From the NCBI GenBank assembly GCA_030066755.1, contig JASJAX010000045.1:1-60367 (forward strand): a stretch of 60,367 nt of DNA. Direction: 5' to 3'. A model generated the notes under the pieces. It saw nothing but the letters and a program-made list of their open reading frames with translations. It was not told the origin of the DNA and did not search any database. The translations under genes were made by a program, and so were the position numbers. Shown piece after piece: positions 5,434 through 56,684 of this stretch. Origin of the DNA: Acidimicrobiia bacterium (GTDB lineage: Bacteria > Actinomycetota > Acidimicrobiia > Spongiisociales > UBA5794). How positions within the stretch are numbered: the stretch's first letter is position 1; each line of letters opens with the position of its first letter.

Positions 5434-5622
5434 ATGAACGACGCAGCCACCATGAACGCAGAGCTGATCGAGTACATCGACTCGTGGTTGGACGAGAACT
5501 CTTGGCGTCTCGACCAGCGCACGCTCGACTTTGCGCTCGACGTGCGTCTCATGGCCTCCGGCATGTCGTTCGAGCCCGTTCCCGACGCCCCCGAGTGGGT
5601 TGCGTCGATGGCCGGCGTCTAA
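5434..5622 (+). CDS. Small hypothetical protein (62 aa)
   Basis: GC3 bias is high across the ORF and ACGGAG lies upstream. I recognise no family. The 3' end overlaps the TetR stop by 4 nt (convergent genes). Confidence 0.4.
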   Translation: MNDAATMNAELIEYIDSWLDENSWRLDQRTLDFALDVRLMASGMSFEPVPDAPEWVASMAGV

Positions 5623-6245
5623 GCAGCGCCACCCTCGGCTTCGACCAACTCGGTCTGCGACACCTCGAACACGCCCTCGAGCAGGGTGCCCAAGTCCTCA
5701 TCAGTGAACTTCGATGGGGCTCCCGTCAGCCACAGCGTGGCCATTCCGTGAACGGTCGCCCACGCCGACATCGCCACGTGCATCGGGTTCTTGTCTCCGA
5801 CCAGACCGGCCTCGGCGACCTGCCTCACGGCTTCGAGCAGGACGGCAAACGCACGGCGGCCGGCGTCGTCGAGCTCCGGGTCCTCGGAGTGATGGAGCTC
5901 CTCGCGAAACATGATCTCGAAGTACTCGTTGCGTTCGAGGGCGAACGAGACGTAGGCCCGTCCGATCGCTTGGAACGCGGCTCGCGGGTCGGGCGCTGAG
6001 TCGAGCGCCGTCTGCATCTGCTCCCGAAAGATCTCGAATCCGCGGGTCGCATACGCCGTCAGCAGCCCGTTCTTGTCGCCGAAGTGGTGGGCGGGCGCCG
6101 AGTGGGATACGCCGGCGCGTCGTGCGGCCTCGCGGAGGCTGACGGCACCGACACCCGAGTCGCGGATGATTTCACCCACGGCGTCGAGTAGAGCCGTCCG
6201 GAGATCGCCGTGGTGGTAGGCCTGCTTCCCCTTGGTCATTTCCAT
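5619..6245 (-). CDS. TetR/AcrR family transcriptional regulator
   Basis: The N-terminal HTH reads LREAARRAGVSHSAPAHHFGDKNGLL. The gene is divergent from an MMPL transporter gene. Confidence 0.9.
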   Translation of the reverse strand: MEMTKGKQAYHHGDLRTALLDAVGEIIRDSGVGAVSLREAARRAGVSHSAPAHHFGDKNGLLTAYATRGFEIFREQMQTALDSAPDPRAAFQAIGRAYVSFALERNEYFEIMFREELHHSEDPELDDAGRRAFAVLLEAVRQVAEAGLVGDKNPMHVAMSAWATVHGMATLWLTGAPSKFTDEDLGTLLEGVFEVSQTELVEAEGGAA

Positions 6246-6268
6246 CCCTGGTTCGATCGCTCCACACT

Positions 6269-6317
6269 ATATCTTGACATCGTCAACATCATGTGCTGAT
6301 ATCTTGACATTGTCAAC
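6269..6317. promoter_or_regulatory. Two tandem 19-bp operator-like repeats in the TetR/MMPL intergenic region
   Basis: The copies are ATATCTTGACATCGTCAAC (6269-6287) and ATATCTTGACATTGTCAAC (6299-6317), 18 of 19 positions identical and exactly 30 bp apart. Each contains a 13-bp palindrome TTGACA-T-(T/C)GTCAA. Confidence 0.6.
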
Positions 6318-6366
6318 TAGTCACTGTCTAGATCTTCGGTGACGAGATGAGGGAGAGACATCCGCC

Positions 6367-9084
6367 ATGCACGCCGCACCACACCGCACGACTCGCTTGA
6401 CCAGCTGGTTGGCCGACCGGGCAACCGCCGTGATCATCACGGCGATGCTCGTGACGGCCATCCTGGCATTGCCGTTCCTGACGATGGAACCGACCGAATC
6501 GGCTTCCCAGGAGCCGCCGGGACCGGTGTTCGAGGCGAGGGACCAGATCGAGGACGAGTTCGCCTCGTCGGTGTTCACGACGTTCACGATTGTCGAAGAT
6601 CGCAACGGTGACATCCTGCGAGCCGAGCCCCTGCGGGCGCTCCTGGCCGCCCAGGATGCCCTTCGTCAGGATCCTGAGCTGGGTCCGACCCTCTTCACGT
6701 ACTTCGATGCGACCGACCAAGCCGAGGTCGTGGGGATGCGATCGATCGCCGACATCATCGACGAGCGATTGGACGGCGGACTCGCCGCTGCGTCCGACGA
6801 ATCGGTCAAAGCGGTTGCGGCGCAACTCATCTCCGACCGCGGGGTGGCCGAACTCGGATTGTCCGCAGCAACGACACGGGATGCCGGCGGAATGCTCGTC
6901 GCACCGGCAGCGATCTTCCCGATCCTTTCCGACGACACCGTTTTGGGGTTCGGCGGGGCCGGGGTTCGCCTCGGCACCGACACTGCCTCGGAGGAGTACA
7001 GCCGGTCGGTGATCGAGGCCATCAGGGCCGACGGGGCGAGCTACTCGGCATGGGGGGTCGCCAACGATGTCAACCTCACCGCCGCAGAGCAGGGCGAGGC
7101 AGCCGGTCCGTTCATCGGCTTCACGATCCTCGCCGTGCTGCTCGTGGTCGGGTTCACCTTCCGCAGCTACTGGGTTTTGGCGGTCACCGGTGGTGCACTC
7201 GCCGCCCTGATCATCTGGCTGCAAGGCATCAGCAACCTGATCGGGCTGAAGGACGACCTCATCCTCTCGCTGATCGTGCCGATCGCCATGATCTCCTTCG
7301 GAGTCGACTTCACCTTCCACGCAGTCGGCCGATACCGCGAGGCTCGGCTGGAAGGTCGCAGGCCGCGGGCGGCGTTCTCGATCGGGATCGCAGCCGTCGC
7401 CGGAGCACTCGTACTCGCCTTGGCATCCGACAGCGGGGCGTTCCTCGCCAACACCGTGGCGCCGATCGAGTCCATCTATCAGTTCGGCCTCGGTGCGGCG
7501 ATTGCCCTGGTGGCCGCCTTCGTGCTGCTCGGGATCGTCACGCCGCTGGCCGTGATGAAGATCGAGGAGAAGGTCGGTTCGCCGGCTCCCACCCGACGCT
7601 CCCGGATCGCCGCCATCGCCGGATCCGGCCTCGCCGGAAGTCTCGCAATGACGTCGGTGTTGCTCAGCGTGTTCATTCTCCCCGCCGGTGGGCTGGTTGC
7701 GCTGGCCGTCTATCTCGTCGCCGCCGTCTGGCTGCCGTATCGGCTGGCGCGGCCTGGAACCGATGCACTCCACTCACTCGACGGTCCGGCAACGACCGGT
7801 CGGGGGACCCGCTTCGTCGGCGCTTTCGTCACGCGCATTGCACATGCTCGGCGGCCGGTCCTAGCGGTCGTCGCCGTGGCCACCGTTGCGGCGGCGCTGC
7901 TCGCCGTGCGAGTCCCGACCGAGTTCGATGTGAAGGACTTCTTCGCCCCGGACACCGACTTCGTGGTCGGGCTCGACAAGCTCGACGAACACGGAGGCGC
8001 CCAGGCCGGCGAGCCCGCCGCGATCCTCGTCGACGCCGACTTGACCGATCCATCCTCCGTGGCGTCACTCCAGTCATTCGTGACGGAGTTCGAGCAGCTC
8101 GACTCAGATCGGTTCGGCCGCGTTGATGACGGCCGGATCGACATCGATGGTGGTGTACTCGAGGTGATCAGGGAGGTGTGGGCCAGCCCCGCGGCTCAGG
8201 CGGCGATCGCCGGCGCCACTGGTGTCACGTTGAGCGACGTCGATGGTGACGGTGTCCCCGACACCTCCGAACAGCTTTCAGCGCTGTACGGGTTCACTCG
8301 CCAAGCGGGCGTGCCGTTCGATGCGGTCAACCTCACACGAACCCCGGACGGTGTTCGGAGCGTCCTGTCAGAGTCCGGCGGAACGGTGCTTCAGGTGCCG
8401 TTGCCGGGTTCCCGGCAGGTGGAGAACATCTCAGGGGCCCGCAGCGACGCTGCCCCGCTCGTCGCCGCCTTCAATTCGGAGCTGTCGGCGATCGACTCCG
8501 ATGCAACGGTGACCTTCACGGGCAGTCCGATTGCCCGTCAGGAGGCGCTCGATGCGATCTCGCAGGCGCTGCGGATCGGCCTCCCGATCGCCGTGCTCGT
8601 GTGTCTGCTGATCGCTGCCACCTTCATGCGATCGATCCGGTTCGCTCTGGTCAGCATCGTTCCGATCCTCATTGTGGTCACCTGGCTGTACGCCTTGATG
8701 TTCGCCGCCGGCTTTGCGATCAACCTCGTGACGGCAACCATCGGCGCCGTCTCGATCGGGATCGGCATCGACTTCGCGATTCACTTCACGATGCGATACC
8801 GCGAGGAGCTGGATCGCTCAGGAGTTCGCGACGTTGCGGTCCGTGCCGCGGCCGAGGGCACCGGGGTTGCGCTGATTGCCTCGGCAATCTCGTCGATGCT
8901 CGGCTTTGCGATTCTCGCCTTCGCCCCGATGCCGTTGTTCGCCTCCTATGGCCTCCTCACTGCAGTGATGATCGCCATGGCGGCCGCAGCGTCGCTGCTC
9001 GTGCTGCCGTCGCTGCTGGTACTCGTCACGCGTGACGCCGCCGAGCCCACGGTTCTGGAGTCTGCGCTGCCCGACGTCGCCTGA
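6367..9084 (+). CDS. MMPL/RND-superfamily membrane transporter
   Basis: The 905-aa protein has two blocks of about 6 TM helices, each followed by a large soluble loop, which is the MMPL-type layout. It is paired with the divergent TetR gene. Confidence 0.85.
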   Translation: MHAAPHRTTRLTSWLADRATAVIITAMLVTAILALPFLTMEPTESASQEPPGPVFEARDQIEDEFASSVFTTFTIVEDRNGDILRAEPLRALLAAQDALRQDPELGPTLFTYFDATDQAEVVGMRSIADIIDERLDGGLAAASDESVKAVAAQLISDRGVAELGLSAATTRDAGGMLVAPAAIFPILSDDTVLGFGGAGVRLGTDTASEEYSRSVIEAIRADGASYSAWGVANDVNLTAAEQGEAAGPFIGFTILAVLLVVGFTFRSYWVLAVTGGALAALIIWLQGISNLIGLKDDLILSLIVPIAMISFGVDFTFHAVGRYREARLEGRRPRAAFSIGIAAVAGALVLALASDSGAFLANTVAPIESIYQFGLGAAIALVAAFVLLGIVTPLAVMKIEEKVGSPAPTRRSRIAAIAGSGLAGSLAMTSVLLSVFILPAGGLVALAVYLVAAVWLPYRLARPGTDALHSLDGPATTGRGTRFVGAFVTRIAHARRPVLAVVAVATVAAALLAVRVPTEFDVKDFFAPDTDFVVGLDKLDEHGGAQAGEPAAILVDADLTDPSSVASLQSFVTEFEQLDSDRFGRVDDGRIDIDGGVLEVIREVWASPAAQAAIAGATGVTLSDVDGDGVPDTSEQLSALYGFTRQAGVPFDAVNLTRTPDGVRSVLSESGGTVLQVPLPGSRQVENISGARSDAAPLVAAFNSELSAIDSDATVTFTGSPIARQEALDAISQALRIGLPIAVLVCLLIAATFMRSIRFALVSIVPILIVVTWLYALMFAAGFAINLVTATIGAVSIGIGIDFAIHFTMRYREELDRSGVRDVAVRAAAEGTGVALIASAISSMLGFAILAFAPMPLFASYGLLTAVMIAMAAAASLLVLPSLLVLVTRDAAEPTVLESALPDVA

Positions 9085-9094
9085 TTGGATCAAG

Positions 9095-9127
9095 GAGATG
9101 GGAGGGGCCCGGCGCCTCTCCCATCTC
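9095..9127. terminator. Bidirectional hairpin between convergent genes
   Basis: GAGATGGGAG pairs with CTCCCATCTC (perfect 10-bp stem) around a GC-rich inner stem. It sits between the MMPL stop and the EspG-like stop. Confidence 0.5.
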
Positions 9128-9863
9128 AGATCCCCTGCAGCATCTCGAGGAGATCCACGAAACGCCGCGTGGCAAAGGTGATCTGTCCGACGTCGTCTCC
9201 GTCGGGCAGGATCTGCCAATAGCCGGCCGGACCGGCATCGAGCACGATGACCTCGGTGTCGCCGGCGGTGCCGTCGTCGCCGATCCAGAGCGATGAGATC
9301 CTCCAGCGGGACCGTCGCTGACAGTGGATCACCGTGAGTCGTTCTGCCCACCCCGGGTCGATTCCGTCGGCGATCAGCCGTGACGCAGCATCTGCGGGGT
9401 TCGCGCTCCACGCCATCTCCAACTCGTCGAGCAGATCGGCCGGCACCGTGACGGAGCCACTGATCGGGGCGTCCGGACGAGGTCCCAAGGTGACGAGCTG
9501 AGCCAGGTGGAAGGTCAGGAGTCCAACCTCGATCGGTCCGAGCCGGAAGAGGTCCGGACCGGCGGGTCGCCCCAGAACCGCGGACGTGCGGCGGATCCAG
9601 ATCGTCGAAATCGCGGTTCCTTCGTCGGTGGTGACCTCGATGGTGACCACGCGCGTCGGAGCGATCACCACCTCGAGCATGTCTGCGGCTTGTGGATGGA
9701 GCTGTCGGTCCGTCGTGATGCCGGCCCGTTCGAGTTCGACCAGGTCCCGTAGCCGCACACGGGCGGCGCCGTCCGACCCATGCGTGCCGAGGAGCATCAC
9801 GCTCGGCACGAGACGGCGTGGCAACGTGAGCGTGCCGCGACCGGCATCGAGAACTGCTTGCAT
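9126..9863 (-). CDS. EspG-like (ESX secretion-associated chaperone-like) protein
   Basis: I place the start at ATG 9863, which has an AGAGGGG RBS and lies 26 nt after the upstream stop. The protein is about 245 aa and soluble. Its pattern resembles the EspG family (LPRRLVP..., LGPRPDAP..., VTVPADLLDEL). It sits in a type VII-like locus. The call comes from resemblance and context only. Confidence 0.4.
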   Translation of the reverse strand: MQAVLDAGRGTLTLPRRLVPSVMLLGTHGSDGAARVRLRDLVELERAGITTDRQLHPQAADMLEVVIAPTRVVTIEVTTDEGTAISTIWIRRTSAVLGRPAGPDLFRLGPIEVGLLTFHLAQLVTLGPRPDAPISGSVTVPADLLDELEMAWSANPADAASRLIADGIDPGWAERLTVIHCQRRSRWRISSLWIGDDGTAGDTEVIVLDAGPAGYWQILPDGDDVGQITFATRRFVDLLEMLQGI

Positions 9864-9889
9864 CGATTGCCCCTCTGGTTCGGTGGTGG

Positions 9890-10828
9890 TCAGGAGTTCG
9901 CAGGGAGTGCTGGTGGTCCCGGCAGGATCTCGGCGACTCGCATTCCTCCGGTGGTTGTGACGAGTCGCAAGACGACCGCCATCGGGAGCGTCGCTCCGGC
10001 TTGATCGATGATGACCGCATCGGCGGTCGCCCACGTGCCGCCGCCAACCTCGCCGACCCGCACCGAGGTGACCTCGATGCGCTCCGCCGGGGCCGGGGTG
10101 ATCGCGATGATGTCGGCGTCGGATGTCACGAGGCGCGGGATTCGTCCGCTCCCCGCCAGGTAGGCGTCGAGGAATTCCTGCACAAACGTCAGGACCGAAT
10201 CGTTGCCCTCGCTCCGAAGGTCCGCGTAGATCCCGAACGGCACGCTTGCGACGGGGGTCGGCACCGGGAGCGGAGCGGCGGTAGCGAGGAAGCCGGAGCC
10301 GACCTCGGCCACCGCGACCTCGAAGTACTCAACGGTCCCGGCGCCGTAGCCGCCATCGACTCGTCGCAGTACGTCCGCCGCAACCGTGACTGTCCAGTAG
10401 CCGAACCCGATCGTGTCGGCGCCGACTGCGGCCGTCCGGCTCACGTATCGATCGTACGCAGCTACTGCAGCTGCAGGCGTGTCGACGGTGAACGATCGCA
10501 TCGTTGACGCACCGGCGCCGGTGAGATGCGCCGCAACGTACATCTCGGCAAAACCCATCAGGCCGTTCGGCGTCTCGTTGAGGACCGGTGGTGATGGAAG
10601 GGCGATCGCGGTGCGAGTACCCCGACCAATCGTCCACCCAGAAATCAACGCGACAACGATCGCCGGTCCCACCCACCAGAGGAAACGTCCGGCCCCAGGT
10701 CTGGACTGTTCGTTGGCTGCGTCGGAAGGTTCAGGATCGGGCTCGCAAGGTGAGTGGCTACGGGTCGAGACGAAGTCGTCGAGGTCCGTGATGGGGGAGC
10801 CGAGTGCCTCTGGATGCGTGATCATCAT
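9890..10828 (-). CDS. Single-pass membrane protein with two TcpC-like (NTF2-like) domains
   Basis: The start at 10828 overlaps the upstream stop (ATGATGA). There is one TM helix (FLWWVGPAIVVALISGWTI). Two repeated modules begin GFAEMYVAAHLTG... and LTFVQEFLDAYLAGSG..., as in conjugative TcpC-family proteins. Confidence 0.45.
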   Translation of the reverse strand: MMITHPEALGSPITDLDDFVSTRSHSPCEPDPEPSDAANEQSRPGAGRFLWWVGPAIVVALISGWTIGRGTRTAIALPSPPVLNETPNGLMGFAEMYVAAHLTGAGASTMRSFTVDTPAAAVAAYDRYVSRTAAVGADTIGFGYWTVTVAADVLRRVDGGYGAGTVEYFEVAVAEVGSGFLATAAPLPVPTPVASVPFGIYADLRSEGNDSVLTFVQEFLDAYLAGSGRIPRLVTSDADIIAITPAPAERIEVTSVRVGEVGGGTWATADAVIIDQAGATLPMAVVLRLVTTTGGMRVAEILPGPPALPANS

Positions 10829-11673
10829 TCCTCCTCGATCTCGATCGGCGGTAGCACCACGGTCTCGCCTGGATAGATGAGGTCGGGGTCGCCCGAACGC
10901 AGCCGGTCCCGGTTGCCTTCGATGACACGTCTCCAGTAGGTGGCGACTCGATCGTCCGATACCGCACCGTCGTGGGCCTGCTCGAGGTGGCGGCGGCTTA
11001 TGGACCAGAGGTGATCGCCGTCTGCGACGATGACTGCGGAGGACCCCGACACCGTCACCGTTGCTGCACCGCGGTCGAGGAGGAAGGGGACGCTGGGTCC
11101 GATGTCGTCGACGGGCACGATGTCCTGCCCGGGTCCGGTCGATGTCGGCATCCATCCGATCCGTCGTGGTCCCGCCGGTCGCATCAGGGTCTCCTCGGGG
11201 CGAGTGTCATTCCTGGCGGACGTGGAGCCGTCGGATGGTGTACCCGGGGGAACGGGTCGCCCGCTCTCGTCGACTTCGACCACGATCGGTGGCAGTTCGT
11301 ACGCCACGGCTGGGAGTGCCGGCGCGGTGATCGAGGCCGTTGCGATGCTGACGGCGAGGGCTCCATCGACGACGCGGCGCACTGCCGGCACGGTCACCCA
11401 CTCGATGCTGCGCATCGTTCTCGGAATCCGCCTCAATCGTGCGACGAGGTAGACGACCGTGGTGCAGAGGATCCAGTAGGCCAGCACGATCGCAACGTGG
11501 CGCAGCACGGCAGCCAACACGTCCTCCATGGGTGCGGACACGAACCAGGTGCCCAGCGAACCCCAGGGGATCCGAAGCCACTCGAGATCGCCGAGGCGGT
11601 GGAGCAGCGCCACGGCGCCGCCTAGGAACACCAGGAGGGTCACAAGTCCGATTCGGCGGCGGATCAACTGCAT
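10825..11673 (-). CDS. Three-TM membrane protein with a C-terminal LysM-like peptidoglycan-binding domain
   Basis: There are three N-terminal TM segments. The C-terminus fits the actinobacterial LysM variant (VIVADGDHLWSISRRHL...YWRRVIEGNRDRLRSGDPDLIYPGETVVLPP). Confidence 0.6.
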   Translation of the reverse strand: MQLIRRRIGLVTLLVFLGGAVALLHRLGDLEWLRIPWGSLGTWFVSAPMEDVLAAVLRHVAIVLAYWILCTTVVYLVARLRRIPRTMRSIEWVTVPAVRRVVDGALAVSIATASITAPALPAVAYELPPIVVEVDESGRPVPPGTPSDGSTSARNDTRPEETLMRPAGPRRIGWMPTSTGPGQDIVPVDDIGPSVPFLLDRGAATVTVSGSSAVIVADGDHLWSISRRHLEQAHDGAVSDDRVATYWRRVIEGNRDRLRSGDPDLIYPGETVVLPPIEIEEE

Positions 11674-11679
11674 GCCGAC

Positions 11680-11750
11680 ACACTACGCATCGCTGAAGTT
11701 GTTTGTCAACGGTTGATTACTGTTGACAAACGTTAGACATCGTATAGGGT
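11680..11750. promoter_or_regulatory. Back-to-back divergent promoters built on a 10-bp perfect inverted repeat
   Basis: GTTTGTCAAC (11701-11710) and GTTGACAAAC (11722-11731) form the repeat. Plus strand: -35 TTGACA at 11723-11728, a 16-nt spacer, and -10 TAGGGT at 11745-11750. Minus strand: -35 TTGACA at 11709-11704, an 18-nt spacer, and -10 TAGTGT at 11685-11680, which ends 6 nt before the LysM-gene ATG. Confidence 0.45.
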
Positions 11751-11816
11751 CGAGAACCGATCGTGAACTCGCCCGAGTTCGTTGCGAGGCCCGACGGCCG
11801 GAGAGGAGAAGCTGAG

Positions 11817-12089
11817 ATGGCCAACATGTTTGGTGCCGACCTGGGTGATTTGGAGACGTTGCGAGGCACGTTCGATCGAAAGGCGGACGAGGTCAACGCG
11901 TTGACGGGAAGCCTCACCGCGCAGATCGCTCCGGGAGCGACGGCCTGGTCGGGTCCGGGTGCCAACAACTTCCGGGCCGCCTGGGACGGGGACTTCCAAC
12001 CAGCGCTCATGAAACTCGAGTCGGCGTTGCGGGAAGCGTCGATCGCCGTCGCCACCTATCGCGACAACATCGAAGCGGCCACTCGCTGA
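11817..12089 (+). CDS. WXG100 family type VII secretion target (ESAT-6-like)
   Basis: The product is about 90 aa and has a central W-S-G motif (TAWSGPGANNFRAAW). A GGAGAGGAG RBS precedes ATG 11817. The longer GTG 11763 start is less likely. Confidence 0.8.
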   Translation: MANMFGADLGDLETLRGTFDRKADEVNALTGSLTAQIAPGATAWSGPGANNFRAAWDGDFQPALMKLESALREASIAVATYRDNIEAATR

Positions 12090-12100
12090 TTCCCTGGGCG

Positions 12101-12466
12101 ATGACCCCGACGGAGATGCGTCAGCAAGCCGCCCGGAAGCGAGCTCGCGCAGCAGCGCTCGATTCGGCGGCGGCTCGGTTGCGGGTGATCGCCGATGAGA
12201 TTCGGCCGCTGCTGTCAGACCTTGCGTCGCGGTCGCGCGAGGTGTGGATCGGTCCGGCGGCATCCGATTTCGAACGTCGTGCAACGGAAGCCGACGCCGA
12301 GGTCAAGGTGCAAGCCGCGCTTCTGGTGTCGACGGCCGGCGACTTCGCCATCGATGCGCGGCGCCTCCGATCGGAGGCTGCGTCGCTCGACACCCAGGCA
12401 GCCACAGCCGAAGCCGCAGCGGCGCTCGGCTGCGACGCGTCACCGATGCCTGCCTCCATCGAGTAG
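12101..12466 (+). CDS. Second WXG100-like helical protein
   Basis: The 121-aa protein is predicted helical and has a W-I-G motif (EVWIGPAASDFERR). It lies 11 nt after the first WXG gene and 5 nt before eccC. Confidence 0.55.
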   Translation: MTPTEMRQQAARKRARAAALDSAAARLRVIADEIRPLLSDLASRSREVWIGPAASDFERRATEADAEVKVQAALLVSTAGDFAIDARRLRSEAASLDTQAATAEAAAALGCDASPMPASIE

Positions 12467-12471
12467 CCGCC

Positions 12472-15400
12472 ATGGAGTTCGCCCTCTCGCTCGACGGCAC
12501 CGAATACGAGGTCGTGCTGCATGGTGCGTATCCCGAGCTGCCGCTCGAAGACGCCATCGCACCCCACGGGGCGCAGGGCGCGTTCGTCGAGGGGCGAATC
12601 GTGGCGCCGACGGCGGCATTCGCTGAGGCGGTCGCGCCAGGATCGCTCGTTGCCGTTGGCGATGAGATCCAGAGGTCGTGGACGGCCATCGAAGGCGCAT
12701 CTGCGGGCGTGCGTGCGTTCAACCGGCCGCCACGCAGCGACTTCCCGGTGGCGCTTCCACCGCTCCCAGCGCCGTCCGGCCGTTCGGCACAGGCGGCGAC
12801 CGTCCGGTTCGGCTGGGCAGCGTTGATCGTTCCGGTCGTACTCGGCGTCGTTCTCGCCGTCGTGATCCACCCGCGTATGGCGCTCTTCGCGGTGTTCTCC
12901 CCAGCGATGGCCTTCGCCAACTGGATCGAACAGCGCCGTCGGACCGTGAACGGCCGGCGTCACGCCCGCAAGGAGCTGGCCGTCGAGCTCGCTGATTTTC
13001 GGGAGCGCTTGACTACTGCAGTGCGCGCTGAGGCCAGGATGCGCCGCAGATCCCACCCGTCGCCAGATCGTCTGATCGCGCGTGTGCTGAACCTGGACGG
13101 TCGGCTCTGGGAACGCCGCCCCCACCACGATGACGCAATGGCGCTGGCCGTCGGCACGGCGTGTGTGGCGTGGGCGCCCGAGCTGACGGCCGGCTACGAA
13201 GGCCCCGCCGCCGTGGTGCACGATCTCGTGCGGGAGCTCGGCGTGCTCCACGACGTTCCGGTCGCTGTTGCGCTCTCACCGGGACACGTCGTCGGTCTCG
13301 CCGGTGGGGCGTCAGTTCGTCGCGCAGTCGCCCGCAGCCTGCTCCTCCAGGCCGTCGTCCTGCACGGCCCATCCGACGTGCGGCTCGCCATCGTGACCGA
13401 TGACCCGGAGCAGTGGGACTGGTGCAAGTGGTTGCCGCATGTCGTTGCCAACGCCGATACGGGTCGGCGGCGCCTCGCCGGTTCCCCGATTGCGGCGGCC
13501 GAGATCTTGACCGGGTTCATCGCCGCACCCGCCGCTACCGAGGGAGTATCCGTCTCCGTCAACGGTCCGTGGGATGTGCTCGTGCTCGATGTCGCCGATC
13601 CGACCCAGCGATCACTCGCTCCGGTTCGCGAGGCAATCGATCGTGCGGCCGTTGGTGGCGGTGCGGTGTTGGCGCTGGCACCTTCGGTGGCTGAGCTTCC
13701 ATCGCGCTGTCACACGGTGGTCCAAGCTGATCCCGAGGGCGTTGCCGTTGTGCGTACACCCTCCGCAGGGAGGGAGTCCGGTTGTGTGGCGGCATGGGTC
13801 GTGACCCGGCGAGACGCACGAGCAGTCGCTCGACGTCTTGCTGGGATCGTTGATCCTGATCTCCGGTCTGGAGTGTCCGAGATCCCCGGAGGAGTCCGTC
13901 TGGTTGAACTCCTCGGTTTGGATGCACCGGCGCCAGACGCGATTGCGGCGCGGTGGGCGCGTTTCCGTGGGACCGATCCGGCCGTTCCTGTCGGCAAGTC
14001 TGCCGACGGGGTGGTGACGGTCAGTCTGGTCGCCGACGGACCACACGCGTTGTTGGCCGGGACCACCGGTTCTGGGAAGTCGGAGCTACTTCGGAGCCTG
14101 GTTGCATCCTTGGCGGCAACCAGCCATCCCGACGACCTGACGTTCGTGCTCGTCGACTACAAAGGTGGAAGCGCCTTCGATGTCTGTGCGCGGTTGCCCC
14201 ACACGGTCGGCCTCGTCACCGACCTCGACGGGCATCTGGCGCAGCGGGCCCTCACGAGCCTCGAAGCCGAGCTGCGCTACCGCGAGGAGACGCTGCGATC
14301 TGTCGGAGCCTCGGACCTGCCGGATTATCGGGATCGGAGCACCGGCCGGCCGCTTCCGCGGCTGTTCGTCGTTGTCGATGAGTTCGCGGCGCTGGCGAAG
14401 GAGCTCCCGGACTTCATGACGTCGCTGATCGACATCGCCCAACGCGGCCGGAGTCTGGGTGTGCATCTCTTGCTGGCTACACAGCGGCCGCAAGGGATCA
14501 TCAATGATCAGATCCGTGCGAACACCAATCTCCGGATCGCATTGCGCGTCCAGGACCCGGTCGACTCGGTCGACGTGGTCGGGACACGATCTGCGGCTGA
14601 GATCGCACGATCGCAGGCGGGCCGCGGATTCGTTCGCCGCGGTGCCGGAGACGTGCAGGCGTTCCAGGCTGCCCGAGTCACTGGGCCGGCCACTGGGAGG
14701 CCCGACCCCGAAGTCCTCCCCTTCATCTTCGCTGCGGAGCAGCCGGTGCCGCCTCCGCCTCAGACGTTGCAGGACCAGACGACGGATTTGGACGTCCTTG
14801 TCGATGCGGTGTGCCGAGCGTTCGAGCAGTCCGAGTCGCCATCGCCCCGCCGACCGTGGCTCGAGCCGCTCGGAACCGACATCGTGGTCGCCGATCTGAC
14901 GCCACCGGCCGCCGGGCGTGTGCGGCTCGGTCTCGCCGACGAGCCGAGTCGGCAACGTCAACGGGCCGCGACCTGGGACCCTGCGGACGGGAACCTCCTG
15001 GTCTACGGCGTTGCCGGGAGTGGCACCTCGACTGCGCTCGAGACGATCGCCATCGGCCTCGCCCGGGCTCACATGCCCGACAACCTCCACCTCTACGGGC
15101 TCGACTTCGATGATCAGCGGCTCGCCCCACTCGACGGCTTGATGCATTGCGGCGGGATCATCGGGTCGTCCGACCGTGAGCGTCAGGTGCGACTGATCCG
15201 GATGCTGCAACGCGATATCGATCGGCGACGCAAGGCACTCGCCGTCGACCCGACCGCCATCGCTTCGTTCCCGACCATCGTGCTGCTCATCGACAACTAC
15301 GGCGGATTCTCTGCGGCGTTCGACGAGCCGGCCGACCTCGCCGTCAAGTCTGCGGTGACTCGGATCATCGCCGATGGGCCCGGCGTCGGAATCGTGTCGA

Positions 15401-16314
15401 TCGTGTCCGCCAAACAGCCGATCGATGTGCCCGCCCAGATCTCTTCCCTGATCTCGGCGAAACTGCTCTTCAAATTGGCGGATCGGTACGAATACGCCGG
15501 GCAGGGTCTGCCCGGAATCAACCCGCCGACGGTGCCCGGGCGGTGCTTCGAGTCATGGACGGGTCGCGAGCTGCAGATCGCTCGTGCTCACGTCGATGGC
15601 GTCGGAGCTGCAGTCGCTGTGATCGAGAGTCCGCTGTCCGTCGATCGCCCAGCGCCGCGCGTCGGCGTGTTGCCGGATGAGGTGAAGGTGTCCCAAATCG
15701 CTCCTGCGGCTGCCGTTTTCGAACTCGAGTGGATCCTTCCGGTGGGTATCGGCGACCACGACCTCACTCCGATCGGGTTCCGTTTGGGCGAGGGCGACCA
15801 CGTTGTGATCAGCGGTCCGGCCCGCTCCGGGAAGTCGACGACGCTGTCGTCGCTGGCGGCCGTTGCCAGATCGGCTCGTCCCGATCTGCGAATCATGGCC
15901 GTGGCTCCACGCCGCTCGCGACTCGCCGACAGTCCGGAGGTTGATGTCGTTGCGCCCACTGCGGAACCCATCGGCCGGTGGCTGGATGGCGGTGGCGACC
16001 TGCTCGTGCTGATCGATGACGCATCGATGGTCGACGATGTTGGCGGTGTCCTGGCGGACCTCGGCGATCGACCCCGCGCTGGAGTTCATGTTGTTGCTGC
16101 GGCACCAGCAGATCTCCTGCGATCGGCGTATGGGCATTGGACGACCGGCATGCGCCGGTCGCGAATTGGTCTTGCGCTCAAGCCAAACCCGGCGACCGAC
16201 GGTGACCTGTGGCAGACGCCGCTGCCGCGTCACGGGCAGGCACAGTTTCCGGTCGGCCGCGGATACCTCATCGCCGACGGAGCATGCGAACTCGTACAGA
16301 TCGCAGGCACGTGA
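12472..16314 (+). CDS. eccC: Type VII secretion FtsK/SpoIIIE-family ATPase (EccC/EssC-like) with three P-loop domains
   Basis: I place the start at ATG 12472 (MEFALSLDG...). A soluble N-terminal domain of about 100 aa is followed by two TM helices. Walker A sites are GTTGSGKSE, a degenerate GVAGSGTST, and GPARSGKST. Walker B-type motifs VVVDEF and LLIDN are present. Confidence 0.9.
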   Translation: MEFALSLDGTEYEVVLHGAYPELPLEDAIAPHGAQGAFVEGRIVAPTAAFAEAVAPGSLVAVGDEIQRSWTAIEGASAGVRAFNRPPRSDFPVALPPLPAPSGRSAQAATVRFGWAALIVPVVLGVVLAVVIHPRMALFAVFSPAMAFANWIEQRRRTVNGRRHARKELAVELADFRERLTTAVRAEARMRRRSHPSPDRLIARVLNLDGRLWERRPHHDDAMALAVGTACVAWAPELTAGYEGPAAVVHDLVRELGVLHDVPVAVALSPGHVVGLAGGASVRRAVARSLLLQAVVLHGPSDVRLAIVTDDPEQWDWCKWLPHVVANADTGRRRLAGSPIAAAEILTGFIAAPAATEGVSVSVNGPWDVLVLDVADPTQRSLAPVREAIDRAAVGGGAVLALAPSVAELPSRCHTVVQADPEGVAVVRTPSAGRESGCVAAWVVTRRDARAVARRLAGIVDPDLRSGVSEIPGGVRLVELLGLDAPAPDAIAARWARFRGTDPAVPVGKSADGVVTVSLVADGPHALLAGTTGSGKSELLRSLVASLAATSHPDDLTFVLVDYKGGSAFDVCARLPHTVGLVTDLDGHLAQRALTSLEAELRYREETLRSVGASDLPDYRDRSTGRPLPRLFVVVDEFAALAKELPDFMTSLIDIAQRGRSLGVHLLLATQRPQGIINDQIRANTNLRIALRVQDPVDSVDVVGTRSAAEIARSQAGRGFVRRGAGDVQAFQAARVTGPATGRPDPEVLPFIFAAEQPVPPPPQTLQDQTTDLDVLVDAVCRAFEQSESPSPRRPWLEPLGTDIVVADLTPPAAGRVRLGLADEPSRQRQRAATWDPADGNLLVYGVAGSGTSTALETIAIGLARAHMPDNLHLYGLDFDDQRLAPLDGLMHCGGIIGSSDRERQVRLIRMLQRDIDRRRKALAVDPTAIASFPTIVLLIDNYGGFSAAFDEPADLAVKSAVTRIIADGPGVGIVSIVSAKQPIDVPAQISSLISAKLLFKLADRYEYAGQGLPGINPPTVPGRCFESWTGRELQIARAHVDGVGAAVAVIESPLSVDRPAPRVGVLPDEVKVSQIAPAAAVFELEWILPVGIGDHDLTPIGFRLGEGDHVVISGPARSGKSTTLSSLAAVARSARPDLRIMAVAPRRSRLADSPEVDVVAPTAEPIGRWLDGGGDLLVLIDDASMVDDVGGVLADLGDRPRAGVHVVAAAPADLLRSAYGHWTTGMRRSRIGLALKPNPATDGDLWQTPLPRHGQAQFPVGRGYLIADGACELVQIAGT

Positions 16315-17870
16315 GGGGGTACTGCGGTGCGGATCCGGACGGGCTTCTGGCCCTGGCAGCGTCGGTCGAGCGGCGGGTCGCGATCGCTGCTCGTCGCGCC
16401 CGCGAGGCGCACTCGCTGCTCAGGCACTTCGGCCGGGGTGGAGACGCCGATCGAATTGGTGCGGCACTCTCTCGCCGCGCACAGCTCCTGGCGCAGTCGG
16501 CGGGCGACCTCACGCGGCGCGCCGACCTCATCCGAGACGCGGAGAGGTTGCTCCCGGGTGGTGGAGCGCTGCCGACAGCGGTGACCTTCGACGCATGGTT
16601 GCGGGCGGAGCATGCACTGGTCGCGCCGTTCGGGCTGACCGACTGGGCCGGCCACTACTTGGCCTGGCGCGACGGGCCACAGCCGGGGAGCATTGCAGGG
16701 CTGGACCCGGCCGACGCCCTGACGACGCTCGAAGGCATCTCGCCTCACGCCCGGCATCGACTGGTGTTGGCCCATCCGGAGCTCATTGGTCGGTTGGACG
16801 GAGCGCCGGCGGAGATGCGGTACGCGGCGAATCGCATTCTCATCCGGCGCGAGATCTCGGGTCTCGAGTCGATGGCGGATGCGCTCACTTCTGACTCCAT
16901 CGACTCCGTCAATGGTGGAGCCATCCACTGGTCAGAGATGTGGCGAGAGCTCCTGGCTGATGAGCGCGCCGGCATCGCGGAACGTATTGCGCGCTACCGC
17001 CTGTGGCTCGATGAGGATCGGCAGATCCTGCTCTTTGATCCCGCCGGCGATGGACTCGTGGTGGAGGTCTTCGGTGATCTCGAGGAAGCCCACCATGTCG
17101 GTGTCGTTGTTCCGGGTATGTCGAACGATATTGGGAACTTCGGTCCCGTTGACGGCGACGGGTTCAGGGCCAACGCGGATGACCTCAAGGCGGCGGCGGC
17201 GGTGTTCGACGAGCGAGTCGCCACCGTCGCTTGGCTGGGCTACGACACGCCCGACGGTGCGGATGCGGGTGTTCGCAATGCTGCACAGGAGGGACACGAC
17301 GGCCTGGTTCGGTTCGTTGCGGGACTGGTAGCCGCCGACGATCGGCATGTCACGGTCATCGGCCACAGCTACGGCTCGCTCGTGACGGGTATGGCATCTC
17401 GGGTCGGCTTGGCTGCGGACGAGTTGGTCTTCGTCGGCAGCCCCGGAACCAGTCTCGACCACGCCGGGGACGCCAACCTTCCGCCGGGCGGGGAGGTGTG
17501 GGCCGGCCTGGCTTCGTGGGATCCGATCGGGGCTGGGGTGAGTCTCACACCGTCCGACTTGTGGGACGGGTCGTTGTCCGTGCCGGGGCGGTACCTCTTT
17601 GACTTGATCACGACCGGCGACCTCGCCGCAGAGGAGCTGTGGCACGGCACGAACCCCGTCCACGAGAAGTTCGGAGCCGTCGAGTTCACTACCGACGGAG
17701 CGACCGGGCACTCGCAGTACTTCGACCCCGGGACCGAGTCGCTGGAGAACCTCGCTCGGATTGTCGCCGGGCACACGGCCCAAGTGACCGTTGTGTCGTC
17801 CGAGCCGTTCGAACTCGCCCCGGGGCCGTTCGGATATCCCTCCATCGACCCCGCAGCCGAAGTGGCGTGA
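16311..17870 (+). CDS. DUF1023-type alpha/beta hydrolase with a helical N-terminal domain
   Basis: GTG 16311 overlaps the eccC stop (GTGA); ATG 16284 is an alternative start. The nucleophile elbow is GHSYGS. The VVVPGM...WLGYDTP pattern is typical of DUF1023. About 250 aa of helical region precede the hydrolase. Confidence 0.75.
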   Translation: MRGYCGADPDGLLALAASVERRVAIAARRAREAHSLLRHFGRGGDADRIGAALSRRAQLLAQSAGDLTRRADLIRDAERLLPGGGALPTAVTFDAWLRAEHALVAPFGLTDWAGHYLAWRDGPQPGSIAGLDPADALTTLEGISPHARHRLVLAHPELIGRLDGAPAEMRYAANRILIRREISGLESMADALTSDSIDSVNGGAIHWSEMWRELLADERAGIAERIARYRLWLDEDRQILLFDPAGDGLVVEVFGDLEEAHHVGVVVPGMSNDIGNFGPVDGDGFRANADDLKAAAAVFDERVATVAWLGYDTPDGADAGVRNAAQEGHDGLVRFVAGLVAADDRHVTVIGHSYGSLVTGMASRVGLAADELVFVGSPGTSLDHAGDANLPPGGEVWAGLASWDPIGAGVSLTPSDLWDGSLSVPGRYLFDLITTGDLAAEELWHGTNPVHEKFGAVEFTTDGATGHSQYFDPGTESLENLARIVAGHTAQVTVVSSEPFELAPGPFGYPSIDPAAEVA

Positions 17871-18509
17871 CTAGTCGAGGGTCAGCGACTCGAAGATGCG
17901 AGTCTGCTCGACTCGGCCTTCGGGAAAGCCCTCCTGGTACAGCACGGCGATGAACACCACGGGGAAGGCGTCTTCGTAGACCGCGATCTCCATCGTCGCA
18001 GTCGAGCCATCGGTCTCATCGACGGCGTAGCTCGCAACGGCGTACGCCGTGCCCTGGACCGTGCCGTTGGTGGGGCCGTCGGTGAGTCGGAACTGGAACG
18101 GTGGTTCCCCGACGTTCAAGAGCCCGGCGAGGATCTCAGCCAAGTCGTCGGGCGTGGCGTTCCTCGGCTCGGCGCCCTCGGAGAGGACATCGGCGACATC
18201 GCCCACGATGATCAATCCGGCCGAGTCGTTGTCCGCACGAAACGCGGCGGAGGCGCGGCCGAAGCGGAGTGACTCTGTGGCGAACTCCCAGTCGCGGGGG
18301 AAGTCGACGGTGACACCGAGCGATTCGACGAACACGGGATCGAGGGGTCCGGGTGGGCGGGTCGTGGTGGTCGTCAGCGAGAAGATCACTTCCGATGTCG
18401 GAGGGATGAACCTCGTCGTCGTGGGACCGGCATCTCCGTCGCCGCAGGCACCGATCACCATTGCGAACGTGGCGACAACGGCGGCGAGCCTTGCGAAACG
18501 GCTACGCAT
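17871..18509 (-). CDS. Lipoprotein of unknown function
   Basis: I place the start at ATG 18509. The signal peptide has a lipobox (FAMVIGAC). The start overlaps the upstream YibE/F stop by 8 nt. Confidence 0.6.
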   Translation of the reverse strand: MRSRFARLAAVVATFAMVIGACGDGDAGPTTTRFIPPTSEVIFSLTTTTTRPPGPLDPVFVESLGVTVDFPRDWEFATESLRFGRASAAFRADNDSAGLIIVGDVADVLSEGAEPRNATPDDLAEILAGLLNVGEPPFQFRLTDGPTNGTVQGTAYAVASYAVDETDGSTATMEIAVYEDAFPVVFIAVLYQEGFPEGRVEQTRIFESLTLD

Positions 18510-20085: not shown

Positions 20086-20430
20086 CTAGCTCGGAATATC
20101 GAGAATGAGGCCGATCGTGGCACGAATCTGGCTGAGAACGGTCGAGCCGACATTCCCGCGAACCCTCTCGATCCTCCTCGTCGACACCGCCCGCAGGTGT
20201 TGACTCTGCGCTGCCGAGTTCTGCTGAAGCCCGTTGGCGGCGTCGGGTTCGACCCTGATCTCCGAGGCGAATGCGCGGATCGTGGTCGTGAGCGGCACGA
20301 CCTGGATCACCGTTGGTTGCGCGTCCAAGACTCGCTGCGCGGTGACCACCACAGCGGGATGGCGGAAACCAGCCTCTCGGCCCTCAGGGAGTCCGAGGTC
20401 CAGGTCGACGACGTCACCCGAGGTCAGCAT
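20086..20430 (-). CDS. mazF: PemK/MazF family type II toxin (endoribonuclease)
   Basis: The 114-aa protein has GDVVDLDL...GFRHPAVVVT...VVPLTT motifs. It overlaps the upstream antitoxin gene by 17 nt. Confidence 0.85.
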   Translation of the reverse strand: MLTSGDVVDLDLGLPEGREAGFRHPAVVVTAQRVLDAQPTVIQVVPLTTTIRAFASEIRVEPDAANGLQQNSAAQSQHLRAVSTRRIERVRGNVGSTVLSQIRATIGLILDIPS

Positions 20431-20608
20431 CGAGCCAGTCGATCTCGTCCTTGGTCAGGACGGCCGTGAGTTCCTCGCCGATGCGTTCCTGGCGGAGACC
20501 TCGAACGGCGAGCGCAACCGTCTCGCCGACGGTTGTGCCGAGCTCATCTGCGAGTCGTTTCAGCTCTTGATGGGTTGCCTGGTCGATGCGCACACTCGTA
20601 CTCTGCAT
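20414..20608 (-). CDS. Ribbon-helix-helix type antitoxin (MazE-like)
   Basis: The start is probably ATG 20608 (MQSTSVRIDQATHQELKRLA), which opens an RHH-type N-terminus. The gene overlaps the toxin gene. Confidence 0.7.
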   Translation of the reverse strand: MQSTSVRIDQATHQELKRLADELGTTVGETVALAVRGLRQERIGEELTAVLTKDEIDWLDADLG

Positions 20609-20616
20609 GCAGATCA

Positions 20617-20634
20617 GCATACAGATCCGTATGC
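20617..20634. promoter_or_regulatory. Palindrome upstream of the antitoxin (candidate TA autoregulation operator)
   Basis: The sequence is GCATAC-agatcc-GTATGC, located 9-26 nt upstream of the ATG at 20608. Confidence 0.4.
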
Positions 20635-56006: not shown

Positions 56007-56684
56007 TCAGTGACCGAGGTCGGCGTCGCCGGGCGTGATCAGTCCGCTCTCGTAGGCAAACGCCACTGCCTGGGCCCGGTTGGTCAGGCCGAGTTTGGTG
56101 AGGATGCTGGAGACGTGGGATTTGACGGTTGCCGCGCCGACGAAGAGTGCTTCGGCTATCTCCAGGTTGCTGGAACCAGCCGCGACGGCAACCAGGACTT
56201 CGCTCTCGCGCTCCGTGAGGCGGTCGAGGCGGGCGACGACCGATGCGTCGAGGGTCGGCGGGGTGGCAAATCGGCTGATCAGTCGTCGCGTCACCGACGG
56301 CGCCAATAGCGCGCCGCCATCCGCCACGGTCCGTACGGCGGCGACCAGGTCCTCCGGGGAGATGTCTTTGAGAACGAAGCCACTTGCGCCGGCACGCAAC
56401 GCCTCGTACACGTACTCGTCCGGATCAAACGTGGTGAGGATCACCACTTTGACTGGCCAATCGGCGGAGTCGACGATCGCCTTGGTTGCCGCCAGGCCGT
56501 CCATCTGGGGCATTCGAATGTCCATGAGGATCACATCGGGACGATGTATCCGTGCGATCTCGATCGCGGCGGCGCCGTCACCGGCCTCGGCGACGACGTC
56601 GATATCGTCCTGGAGCCCGAGCATGGCGGCGAAACCGCCCCGCACCAGGGCCTGATCATCGACGACGGCGACCTTGATGCTCAC
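56007..56684 (-). CDS. NarL/LuxR-family response regulator
   Basis: The receiver domain shows VAVVDDQ and LMDIRMPQMDG. The LuxR HTH reads LTERESEVLVAVAAGSSNLEIA. A GTGA overlap joins it to the kinase gene. Confidence 0.9.
   Translation of the reverse strand: MSIKVAVVDDQALVRGGFAAMLGLQDDIDVVAEAGDGAAAIEIARIHRPDVILMDIRMPQMDGLAATKAIVDSADWPVKVVILTTFDPDEYVYEALRAGASGFVLKDISPEDLVAAVRTVADGGALLAPSVTRRLISRFATPPTLDASVVARLDRLTERESEVLVAVAAGSSNLEIAEALFVGAATVKSHVSSILTKLGLTNRAQAVAFAYESGLITPGDADLGH

Follow-up and report, generated by a model that had tools for sequence, protein, structure and literature searches.

Type VII secretion systems (T7SSs) are defined by an EccC ATPase together with WXG100 proteins, and the rest of the channel differs by lineage and is poorly understood. 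Ten subtypes, T7SSa to T7SSj, have been delimited according to the clade of EccC and the genes around it (Garrett, Higginson & Palmer 2024, PMC11217815); only EccC and the WXG100 proteins are universal to all of them, none includes a TcpC/VirB8-like, LysM or DUF1023 component, and Acidimicrobiia go unmentioned in that survey (PMC11217815). Links between T7SSs and type IV secretion systems (T4SSs) are on record in two forms, namely pRAW-type plasmids on which both systems are present in full (PMC4173767) and the fold homology of TraF and EssB (PMC13037476), and mycobacterial conjugation uses ESX systems (PMC4173767). A 2025 review of T4SSs makes no mention of a VirB8-like protein in a T7SS, and we found no open-access literature combining 'type VII secretion' and 'Acidimicrobiia'. 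Here, we describe a locus at positions 9126-17870 of a 60,367-nucleotide stretch of DNA from an Acidimicrobiia bacterium (contig JASJAX010000045.1; hereafter the window, or the 60-kb window), which on balance is probably an uncatalogued, chromosomal and vertically inherited T7SS variant of a sediment Acidimicrobiia clade. Its conserved set is best read as an EccC with a fused ubiquitin-like domain (Ubl), a pair of WXG100 proteins and a divergently encoded TcpC/VirB8-like protein, to which one sub-clade adds a LysM protein, an EspG and a DUF1023 hydrolase.

Because the G+C content of the window is 66%, genes were called with a codon-usage model, and the junctions were checked by eye. The locus holds seven genes in two tightly packed divergent operons (Table 1), of which the plus-strand one runs WXG100-a (WXG-a), WXG100-b (WXG-b), EccC and DUF1023, and the minus-strand one LysM three-transmembrane protein (LysM-3TM), TcpC-like and EspG-like. 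A first-pass annotation of the same DNA had named two WXG100-like genes, a three-P-loop EccC/EssC ATPase and a translationally coupled DUF1023 gene, and all of these held, with start codons corrected. WXG-a matches TIGR03930 (E=8e-11, just under cutoff) and Pfam WXG100 (E=4.7e-6), while the matches of WXG-b (Pfam WXG100, E=1.7e-3; TIGR03930, E=7e-4) are both below cutoff; each carries a W-x-G motif, and the two genes stand directly upstream of EccC, with 5 nt between the WXG-b stop and the EccC start. At the other end of EccC, its TGA stop is overlapped by the GTG start of DUF1023 (GTGA). On the minus strand, the LysM-3TM stop and the TcpC-like start overlap as ATGA, and 26 nt separate TcpC-like from EspG-like.

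The ATPase matches Pfam FtsK_SpoIIIE (1.6e-45) and, among the NCBIfam models, scores best with EssC (7e-149, 498 bits), followed by EccCa (7e-117) and EccCb (1e-86), all below the equivalog cutoffs; its best match in the PDB is the EccC of Thermomonospora curvata (PDB ID: 4NH0; 2.8e-84). The Walker A motifs lie at residues 530, 846 and 1115 (starts at 14059, 15007 and 15814), a canonical Walker B (DE) occurs in the first domain only, and a transmembrane (TM) hairpin spans residues 108-145 (12793-12906). A membrane ATPase of this EccC/EssC type, in which a TM hairpin goes with several P-loop domains, is common to T7SSs generally. With T7SSa (EccB-EccC-EccD-EccE-MycP), the locus shares this EccC with three FtsK-like ATPase domains, a heterologous WXG100 pair directly upstream of it, an EspG-family chaperone and the phylum Actinomycetota, although its EccC D1 is only 36-38% identical to that of mycobacterial EccC.

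In contrast to T7SSa, the conserved candidate membrane partner of EccC at this locus is a single-pass protein that had been called TcpC-like from the outset, and this assignment was borne out. An acidic N-terminal tail is predicted in the cytoplasm, then a TM helix (residues 49-67; 10628-10684) and, on the outside, a pair of NTF2-like domains (about residues 88-190 and 205-303), which is the arrangement of the TcpC/VirB8-like family (PF12642). Among 5.8 billion proteins searched, close homologues share 58-63% identity with the protein and more distant ones 31-35%; several in the latter group carry PF12642 or the name 'conjugal transfer protein', and orthologues in two other loci match PF12642 with E <= 1e-5. 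Moreover, an AlphaFold2 (AF2) model from 15 sequences, with a low pLDDT of 53, shows a helix and a four- to five-stranded sheet, twice over, and a Foldseek search of the PDB with this model gave TcpC of pCW3 (PDB ID: 3UB1; 5e-7) as top match, the VirB8-like OrfG of ICESt3 (2e-5) as second, and PrgL next. By its orthologues and its modelled topology and double fold, which are those of pCW3 TcpC and ICESt3 OrfG, the protein is thus predicted to be TcpC/VirB8-like.

Proteins of the TcpC family are found mostly in T4SS conjugation operons. A metagenome scan with the TcpC alignment yielded 39 loci (loci are cited here by number), one of which (L086) is identical to the window, while about 30 are conjugation-type operons in the order LGT - LysM-3TM-like - TcpC - 86 aa - TcpE - VirB4 - 484 aa, with VirB4 matching AAA_10 (3e-56) and the 484-aa protein a weak TrbL/VirB6. 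Streptomyces linear plasmids carry the same kind of cluster, the TcpC homologue being annotated there as 'conjugal transfer protein'. The TcpC-like protein of the window is 29-35% identical to the products of actinobacterial T4SS TcpC genes, and at least 10 of the conjugation-type operons have, like the window, a gene for a LysM-3TM homologue immediately before TcpC. In a neighbour-joining (NJ) tree of 47 TcpC-like sequences, made with no bootstrap, all T7-associated copies nevertheless form one clade, apart from the approximately 30 conjugation-operon copies. Downstream of two complete Tcp-type T4SS operons, at a distance of about 1.5 kb, we noticed an EccC-like gene (L090:5500-7845 and L102:8200-11614); its product begins in a Ubl-like manner, has a TM hairpin and a DUF domain, and in D1 is 47% identical to that of the window. 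Both contigs show apparent frameshifts. As a general feature of such operons, this arrangement was rejected, being missing in L108 and L125.

Another possibility, and a very improbable one, is that a Tcp-type T4SS was reduced here to a device for conjugation or DNA transfer, whose FtsK-like ATPase would translocate DNA and not export protein. Such a derivation would fit with LysM-3TM and TcpC standing at the start of actinobacterial T4SS operons (LGT-LysM3TM-TcpC-86aa-TcpE-VirB4-VirB6-like), with the EccC-like gene beyond them in the one lineage (L090, L102), and with the service of ESX systems in mycobacterial conjugation (PMC4173767). However, the ATPase has the architecture of EccC, consisting of the TM hairpin, the DUF domain and three P-loop domains, and scores as EssC/EccC; its companions are a WXG100 pair and EspG; and the locus holds a fixed chromosomal position beside surE in several genomes. 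By Pfam, the 60-kb window contains no VirB4-like (TcpF/AAA_10), TcpE, VirB6-like (TcpH), T4SS-type coupling-protein, relaxase or integrase gene, whereas the T4SS components are all present in the true T4SS loci (L002, L087-L121 and L125). Compared with the pRAW plasmids and the TraF/EssB pair, which are precedents for linked T4SS and T7SS parts in Gram-positive bacteria, the difference is that pRAW plasmids carry complete T4SS-like and ESX loci, whereas here a single T4SS-type scaffold gene lies within a chromosomal locus that is otherwise T7SS-only.

To place the locus among its relatives, EccC was scanned against one genome per GTDB species, and tblastn and gene calling were then applied to the loci found and to four metagenome contigs. 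Acidimicrobiia relatives came first (38-50% identity), then Nocardioides, Curtobacterium, Chloroflexota and the mycobacterial ESX loci. Divergent from WXG-WXG-EccC, a TcpC-like gene occurs in the genomes of 10 other Acidimicrobiia species, and several metagenome contigs have it too. Such a gene stands beside EccC in at least 14 loci (L001, L003-L011, L015, L085 and two further contigs), over EccC identities of 44-73%; L013 is the one related Acidimicrobiia locus, among those long enough, where it does not accompany WXG-WXG-EccC. Carriers of the locus among complete or near-complete Acidimicrobiia genomes include CBDCGU010000003.1 (4.16 Mb), CAWBYA010000006.1 and CAWGLY010000008.1, and metagenome contig JAAUXZ010136405.1 is identical to the window in the TcpC-like region. 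Two locus types can be told apart. In sub-clade A (the window, L001, L003, L004, L005, L009, L085 and two contigs without DNA), the order is EspG-TcpC-LysM3TM / WXGa-WXGb-EccC-DUF1023, the two halves being divergent, and the locus lies beside surE wherever the flank is known. In sub-clade B (L006, L007, L008, L010, L011 and L015), TcpC is divergent from WXGa-WXGb-EccC and there is nothing more, the flanks being unrelated (ABC transporter, DUF3179, DUF4389, nitroreductase and MMPL). From these two types, the conserved core is TcpC-like, two WXG genes and EccC, with WXG-b kept between WXG-a and EccC in the relatives. LysM-3TM, EspG and DUF1023 appear and disappear together, only in the sub-clade of the window, and they are accessory to one sub-clade and not core.

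The first-pass annotation had raised a co-occurrence of LysM, TcpC-like, EspG-like, WXG and EccC genes and, from it, a distinct T7SS architecture. What stands of the former is the pairing of TcpC-like with WXG-WXG-EccC, in all long loci but L013, while LysM-3TM and EspG are confined to one sub-clade; of the latter, the arrangement is indeed not among T7SSa-j, but its LysM-3TM, EspG and DUF1023 do not belong to the core. Like T7SSc to T7SSj, the system can be defined as an EccC/EssC clade with a conserved gene neighbourhood.

In some relatives, the TcpC-like gene is translationally coupled to further genes that lack a family match; these encode proteins of 385-422 aa with one TM helix (L004:5746-7014 and L005:5700-6857) or of 671 aa with three (L007:5752-7767), and may be additional membrane components. 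In L015 (7661-13594), the EccC frame is split (709 + 700 aa) and the TcpC-like gene is fragmented too, either through joint decay or through indel errors of a long-read assembly. The EccC homologues of Chloroflexota (L017, L019, L022, L024-L028, L031 and L034) are tandem tblastn matches over 6-8 kb, and resemble giant or serial multi-ATPase genes in which the FtsK-like domains number more than three.

The two operons of the window are separated by a 143-bp AT-rich intergenic region, where predicted back-to-back promoters sit on an inverted repeat, TGTTTGTCAAC (11700-11710) and GTTGACAAACG (11722-11732). For the WXG operon on the plus strand, the predicted promoter consists of TTGACA (11723-11728), 16 nt and TAGGGT (11745-11750), an element that a simple sigma-70 scan missed; on the minus strand it consists of TTGACA (reverse complement of 11704-11709), 18 nt and TAGTGT (reverse complement of 11680-11685). 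As TAGTGT ends about 7 nt before the LysM-3TM ATG, the minus-operon transcript may be leaderless. The plus-strand element, including its ACGTTAAACAACGT-like spacer, is kept upstream of WXG-a in ten loci of both sub-clades (TTGACA-ACGTTAAACAACGT-like spacer-TAnnnT in L001, L003-L006, L008-L011, L086 and L107), and it occurs nowhere else in the window or the 125 fetched loci. Being conserved and unique to this position, the element points to a dedicated, conserved control of the locus that links the two operons.

This pairing bears on the question of whether EccC needs the TcpC-like protein at all. In a minimal WXG100 system, EccC alone would be the translocon, and the TcpC-like and LysM proteins would be co-regulated factors of wall remodelling or substrate retention. 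That only EccC and WXG100 are universal to T7SS types (PMC11217815), that L013 has EccC without TcpC, and that LysM-3TM is dispensable in the sister sub-clade are all in keeping with it. We nevertheless consider it quite unlikely: every characterised T7SS needs extra membrane components, TcpC/VirB8-like proteins are structural scaffolds in Gram-positive T4SSs (PDB IDs: 3UB1 and 7PKW), and the strict divergent pairing with a shared operator fits stoichiometric co-production.

A further departure from known EccCs is found at the N-terminus, where the first-pass annotation had seen a soluble domain of about 100 residues ahead of the TM helices and likened it to EssC. The soluble region is there, but its likeness to EssC did not hold, as we find no FHA domain and, judging by profile comparison, it appears to be a fused Ubl (residues 1 to about 65; 12472-12666) and a linker, FNRPPR lying at 12718-12735. 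In fact, when a profile of 15 EccC N-termini was compared with the PDB, 18 out of 18 matches were ubiquitin-like, including SAMP2 (4.8e-4), ubiquitin (0.02), the Ubl of UBCP1 (0.02) and ISG15 (0.04), and it is by this profile that the ubiquitin-like module of T7SSs (YukD/EsaB/EccD-N) is represented at the locus. Pfam YukD gave a single weak match, hhalign of the N-terminal alignment against the Ubl domains of mycobacterial EccD reached 12% probability, and the region drew two matches from the 5.8-billion-protein set; an AF2 model of residues 1-100 from a two-sequence alignment had a pLDDT of 44, and its Foldseek matches were meaningless. Fused to EccC, such a Ubl would supply the YukD/EccD-type module of nearly all T7SSs, which fits a system without EccD.

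In the relatives, about 200 aa precede FNRPPR and the TM hairpin, in which an FHA-like domain comes after one of about 70 aa (VDG..V....L.daGL..GS.L). L013 and L014 have a canonical form of this FHA and closer relatives a degenerate one, while that of P0136 is Pfam-positive. Compared with the N-termini of L003-L011, L013 and L014, the EccCs of the window, L001 and P0135 have the first domain only, and this lineage has lost the FHA between Ubl and TM hairpin while keeping the Ubl. ESX EccCs, on the other hand, are without the N-terminal Ubl, and without the FHA that goes with it in the relatives. With T7SSb, the locus has in common a soluble domain ahead of the ATPase TM helices, the best score with the EssC model and a ubiquitin-like module. 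Here, though, the Ubl is fused to the ATPase, whereas YukD of T7SSb is separate; EssC has two FHA domains, while the EccC of this genome has none and that of relatives a single, degenerate one; and there are two distinct WXG100 genes instead of one.

The actinomycetotal T7SSd is comparable in that its ATPases have an N-terminal FHA and there is no separate Ubl protein. However, neither the locus nor the flanks of its relatives contain the TsdD kinase, TsdH and TsdI (a giant Ig-repeat protein) that accompany the FHA-bearing TsdC, and there is no kinase, phosphatase, TsdH or TsdI at the locus; no kinase was found in the window other than a cytoplasmic STAND protein of 1755 aa, encoded 17 kb away. 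A distant relative, the cultured actinomycete Nocardioides acrostichi (L014:7490-13894), does have a membrane Ser/Thr kinase (Pkinase, 1.6e-49; TM residues 379-407) immediately upstream of a Ubl-FHA-EccC, a pairing similar to that of T7SSc/d and resembling TsdD, whereas the Acidimicrobiia loci are without a kinase beside EccC.

Every gene called in the 60-kb window with a product of 59 aa or more was scanned with Pfam for the canonical membrane partners, and there was no match to EccB, EccD, EccE, Peptidase_S8/mycosin, EssA, EssB, EsaA or YukD; their absence, already remarked in the first-pass annotation for all but YukD, is thus confirmed for the window. In terms of T7SSa, where EccB, EccD, MycP and usually EccE go with eccC, the window has no PF05108, PF08817/EccD, PF11203 or PF00082, and in terms of T7SSb, with its EssA, EssB pseudokinase, EsaA and two-FHA EssC, no Pfam or NCBIfam match. 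No canonical T7SSa or T7SSb membrane gene, EccB, EccD and MycP included, was found within ±10 kb of EccC among the selected neighbouring open reading frames (ORFs) that were Pfam-scanned in Acidimicrobiia relatives, including loci on 4-Mb contigs. Local hidden Markov models of EccB and EccD, built from 36-45 mycobacterial loci, likewise had no match in the window and 15 Acidimicrobiia loci, but these models are too narrow and missed the Pfam-positive EspG, and two of their seeds were in fact EspI-like and EspG.

These absences could be those of an ordinary actinobacterial T7SSa, of which EccB, EccD, MycP and possibly EccE are encoded elsewhere, with LysM-3TM/TcpC being an unrelated envelope module, or the relic of an integrated conjugative element, that happens to lie next to it. 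Such a view is helped by the scope of the search of this genome, which is the 60-kb window, by the T4SS home of most TcpC proteins, and by housekeeping copies of LysM-3TM (WhiB-DUF3107-[LysM-3TM]-Prs-GlmU). Yet canonical genes normally cluster with eccC, as they do in the mycobacterial loci L036 and L042, and there are none in the 60 kb or among the scanned Acidimicrobiia neighbours. Moreover, the adjacency of TcpC, the shared promoter region and the same-operon EspG are retained at EccC identities as low as 44%, the TcpCs associated with T7 are a clade of their own, no VirB4, TcpE, VirB6 or relaxase gene is nearby, and a Ubl fused to EccC fits a system without EccD. An ordinary T7SSa with a dispersed membrane core is therefore unlikely, and we continue to favour a separate variant with the TcpC-like protein as membrane partner.

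As for the accessory proteins, the three TM helices of LysM-3TM (residues 6-28, 51-80 and 105-124) are followed by a linker rich in Pro and, at the C-terminus, by LysM (about 10846-11046). Its family gave 252 matches, with members carrying PF01476 or the name 'LysM peptidoglycan-binding', and none in the PLSDB plasmids. Distant full-length members (34-39% identity) lie in the housekeeping context WhiB-DUF3107-[LysM-3TM]-Prs-GlmU-IspE-KsgA. An NJ tree sets the T4SS copies apart as a separate clade but does not resolve T7 copies from housekeeping ones. Since the family has both housekeeping and conjugation-operon paralogues, LysM-3TM seems to be a general envelope protein, paralogues of which were recruited to both machines, and not a T7SS-specific one. 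In two Acidimicrobiia loci with full-length paralogues (L083:9001-9771 and L084:9001-9792), the housekeeping block continues to TatD, and its conservation suggests a general cell-envelope role of the family.

With PF14011, the EspG-like protein reaches 41 bits where the cutoff is 27 (E=2.2e-10; profile positions 17-231 of 245), and orthologues occupy the same position in L001, L003, L004, L005, L009 and L085. Here, a member of a T7SS-specific chaperone family is in one operon with TcpC-like and LysM-3TM, the junctions overlapping or nearly abutting, while the PE/PPE genes of T7SSa are absent from the locus despite the presence of EspG. DUF1023 belongs to Abhydrolase_8 (PF06259; E=1.3e-32, 113 bits), and in its nucleophile elbow GHSYG (17361-17375) H-S-Y-G is invariant in six aligned orthologues (the window and five others). 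It is without a signal peptide, and its N-terminal approximately 240 aa have no family match, though their beginning (G-A-D-P-x-G-L-x-x-L) resembles WXG-a (F-G-A-D-L-G-D-L-E-T-L), the common motif being G-A-D-x-x-x-L-x-x-L. An hhalign comparison of this region with the WXG-a and WXG-b alignments gave no signal, but lacks power, since even WXG-a against WXG-b reaches only 8%. In view of its translational coupling to EccC and co-occurrence with EspG, DUF1023 is a probable secreted effector and may be a client of EspG. In L003, L004, L005 and L009, a response-regulator/kinase pair stands beside DUF1023; orthology to the corresponding pair of the window (56007-57826) was rejected, as the likeness, at 37% identity, is generic.

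The flanks are unrelated, TetR and MMPL standing on one side, YibE/F and a lipoprotein on the other. EspG directly abuts a small ORF and surE in L001, L085 and a third contig, and it is between surE and EspG-like that the TetR and MMPL/RND genes of the window are inserted. The lipoprotein (lipobox IGAC) has no Pfam match and is convergent with DUF1023, their stops abutting at 17870/17871; it may serve the hydrolase as a partner of the immunity type, or have nothing to do with it. Along with YibE/F, it is kept in L001 and one more contig and not in L003-L009. Further genes of the window are given in Table 1.

Table 1. Features of the locus and other genes of the window
Feature	Position	Strand	Remarks
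EspG-like, predicted cytoplasmic chaperone, 245 aa	9126-9863	-	Last gene of minus operon; Pfam PF14011 ESX-1_EspG
TcpC/VirB8-like bitopic membrane protein (predicted), 312 aa	9890-10828	-	PF12642 in homologues; Foldseek 3UB1
LysM three-TM protein (LysM-3TM), 282 aa	10825-11673	-	Hydropathy; LysM annotated in family members
Divergent promoter/operator, predicted	11680-11750	both	Sequence motif, conservation
WXG100-a (WXG-a), 90 aa	11817-12089	+	TIGR03930; W-S-G at residue 44
WXG100-b (WXG-b), 121 aa	12101-12466	+	Weak WXG100; W-I-G at residue 49
EccC/EssC-type ATPase, 1280 aa	12472-16314	+	FtsK_SpoIIIE; three Walker A
DUF1023/Abhydrolase_8 alpha/beta hydrolase, 519 aa	16311-17870	+	Pfam PF06259
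TetR regulator and MMPL/RND transporter	5619-9084		Between surE and EspG-like
Lipoprotein	17871-18509	-	Lipobox IGAC
MazF/PemK toxin gene	20086-20620	-	Small overlapping upstream ORF, likely antitoxin
RTX (HemolysinCabind) repeat protein, 682 aa	21661-23709	+	Near the MazF/PemK gene
STAND-type signalling protein, 1755 aa	34992-40259	-	Winged-helix/BTAD, Ser/Thr kinase, nSTAND1 NTPase, WD40 repeats

Several observations weigh against a separate T7SS variant. A canonical eccB/eccD/mycP set may be present in the genome beyond the 60 kb covered. The TcpC-like protein of the window has no Pfam match of its own, being below PF12642 detection, its LysM-3TM has a sub-threshold LysM match, and both AF2 models, of the TcpC-like protein and the EccC N-terminus, are of low confidence. 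LysM-3TM, moreover, has close housekeeping paralogues and is missing from the sister sub-clade. In L013, a complete Acidimicrobiales chromosome, EccC lies among housekeeping genes with no detectable TcpC and no canonical partner. The synteny is partly phylogenetic inertia, as all supporting loci may descend from one ancestral arrangement, though identities of 44-50% speak for a long retention. All that is known of the organism comes from marine-sediment metagenomes, and in our search the locus sequence was found in such DNA runs only and in no RNA runs.

From the observed gene content, homologies, synteny, promoter motif and Ubl assignment, we infer that the components of the variant associate physically and act in secretion, with the following roles. 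Hexamers of EccC would be both the motor and the membrane channel, the fused Ubl would replace the separate YukD/EsaB or the EccD Ubl domain of other T7SSs, and a heterodimer of WXG-a and WXG-b would be both a substrate and the activator of EccC. The TcpC-like protein could oligomerise via its two extracytoplasmic NTF2-like domains into a wall-spanning scaffold, a job that falls to EccB or EsaA elsewhere. In the sub-clade of the window, the polytopic LysM protein might then tie this complex to peptidoglycan, and the EspG-like protein would be a chaperone, likely that of the DUF1023 serine hydrolase as effector.

It is possible, though doubtful, that the locus goes further and is a true T4SS/T7SS chimera and an evolutionary link, in which EccC works via a VirB8-like scaffold taken, with its LysM partner, from actinobacterial conjugation systems, some of which would in turn use an EccC-like Ubl-TM-FtsK ATPase (L090 and L102). 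Were this so, the envelope-spanning parts of Gram-positive T4SSs and T7SSs would be interchangeable. For the variant as such, having a VirB8-like scaffold as the only conserved partner would make it a very small and tractable system for what EccC needs to cross a Gram-positive envelope, and would extend the hints of shared Gram-positive T4SS/T7SS parts given by TraF/EssB and the pRAW plasmids. A fused Ubl is possibly worth seeking in T7SSd, where no ubiquitin-like protein has been found, and the DUF1023 hydrolase would be a candidate for a new effector class. Furthermore, the variant would extend the T7SS catalogue into the Acidimicrobiia, an abundant and largely uncultured class.

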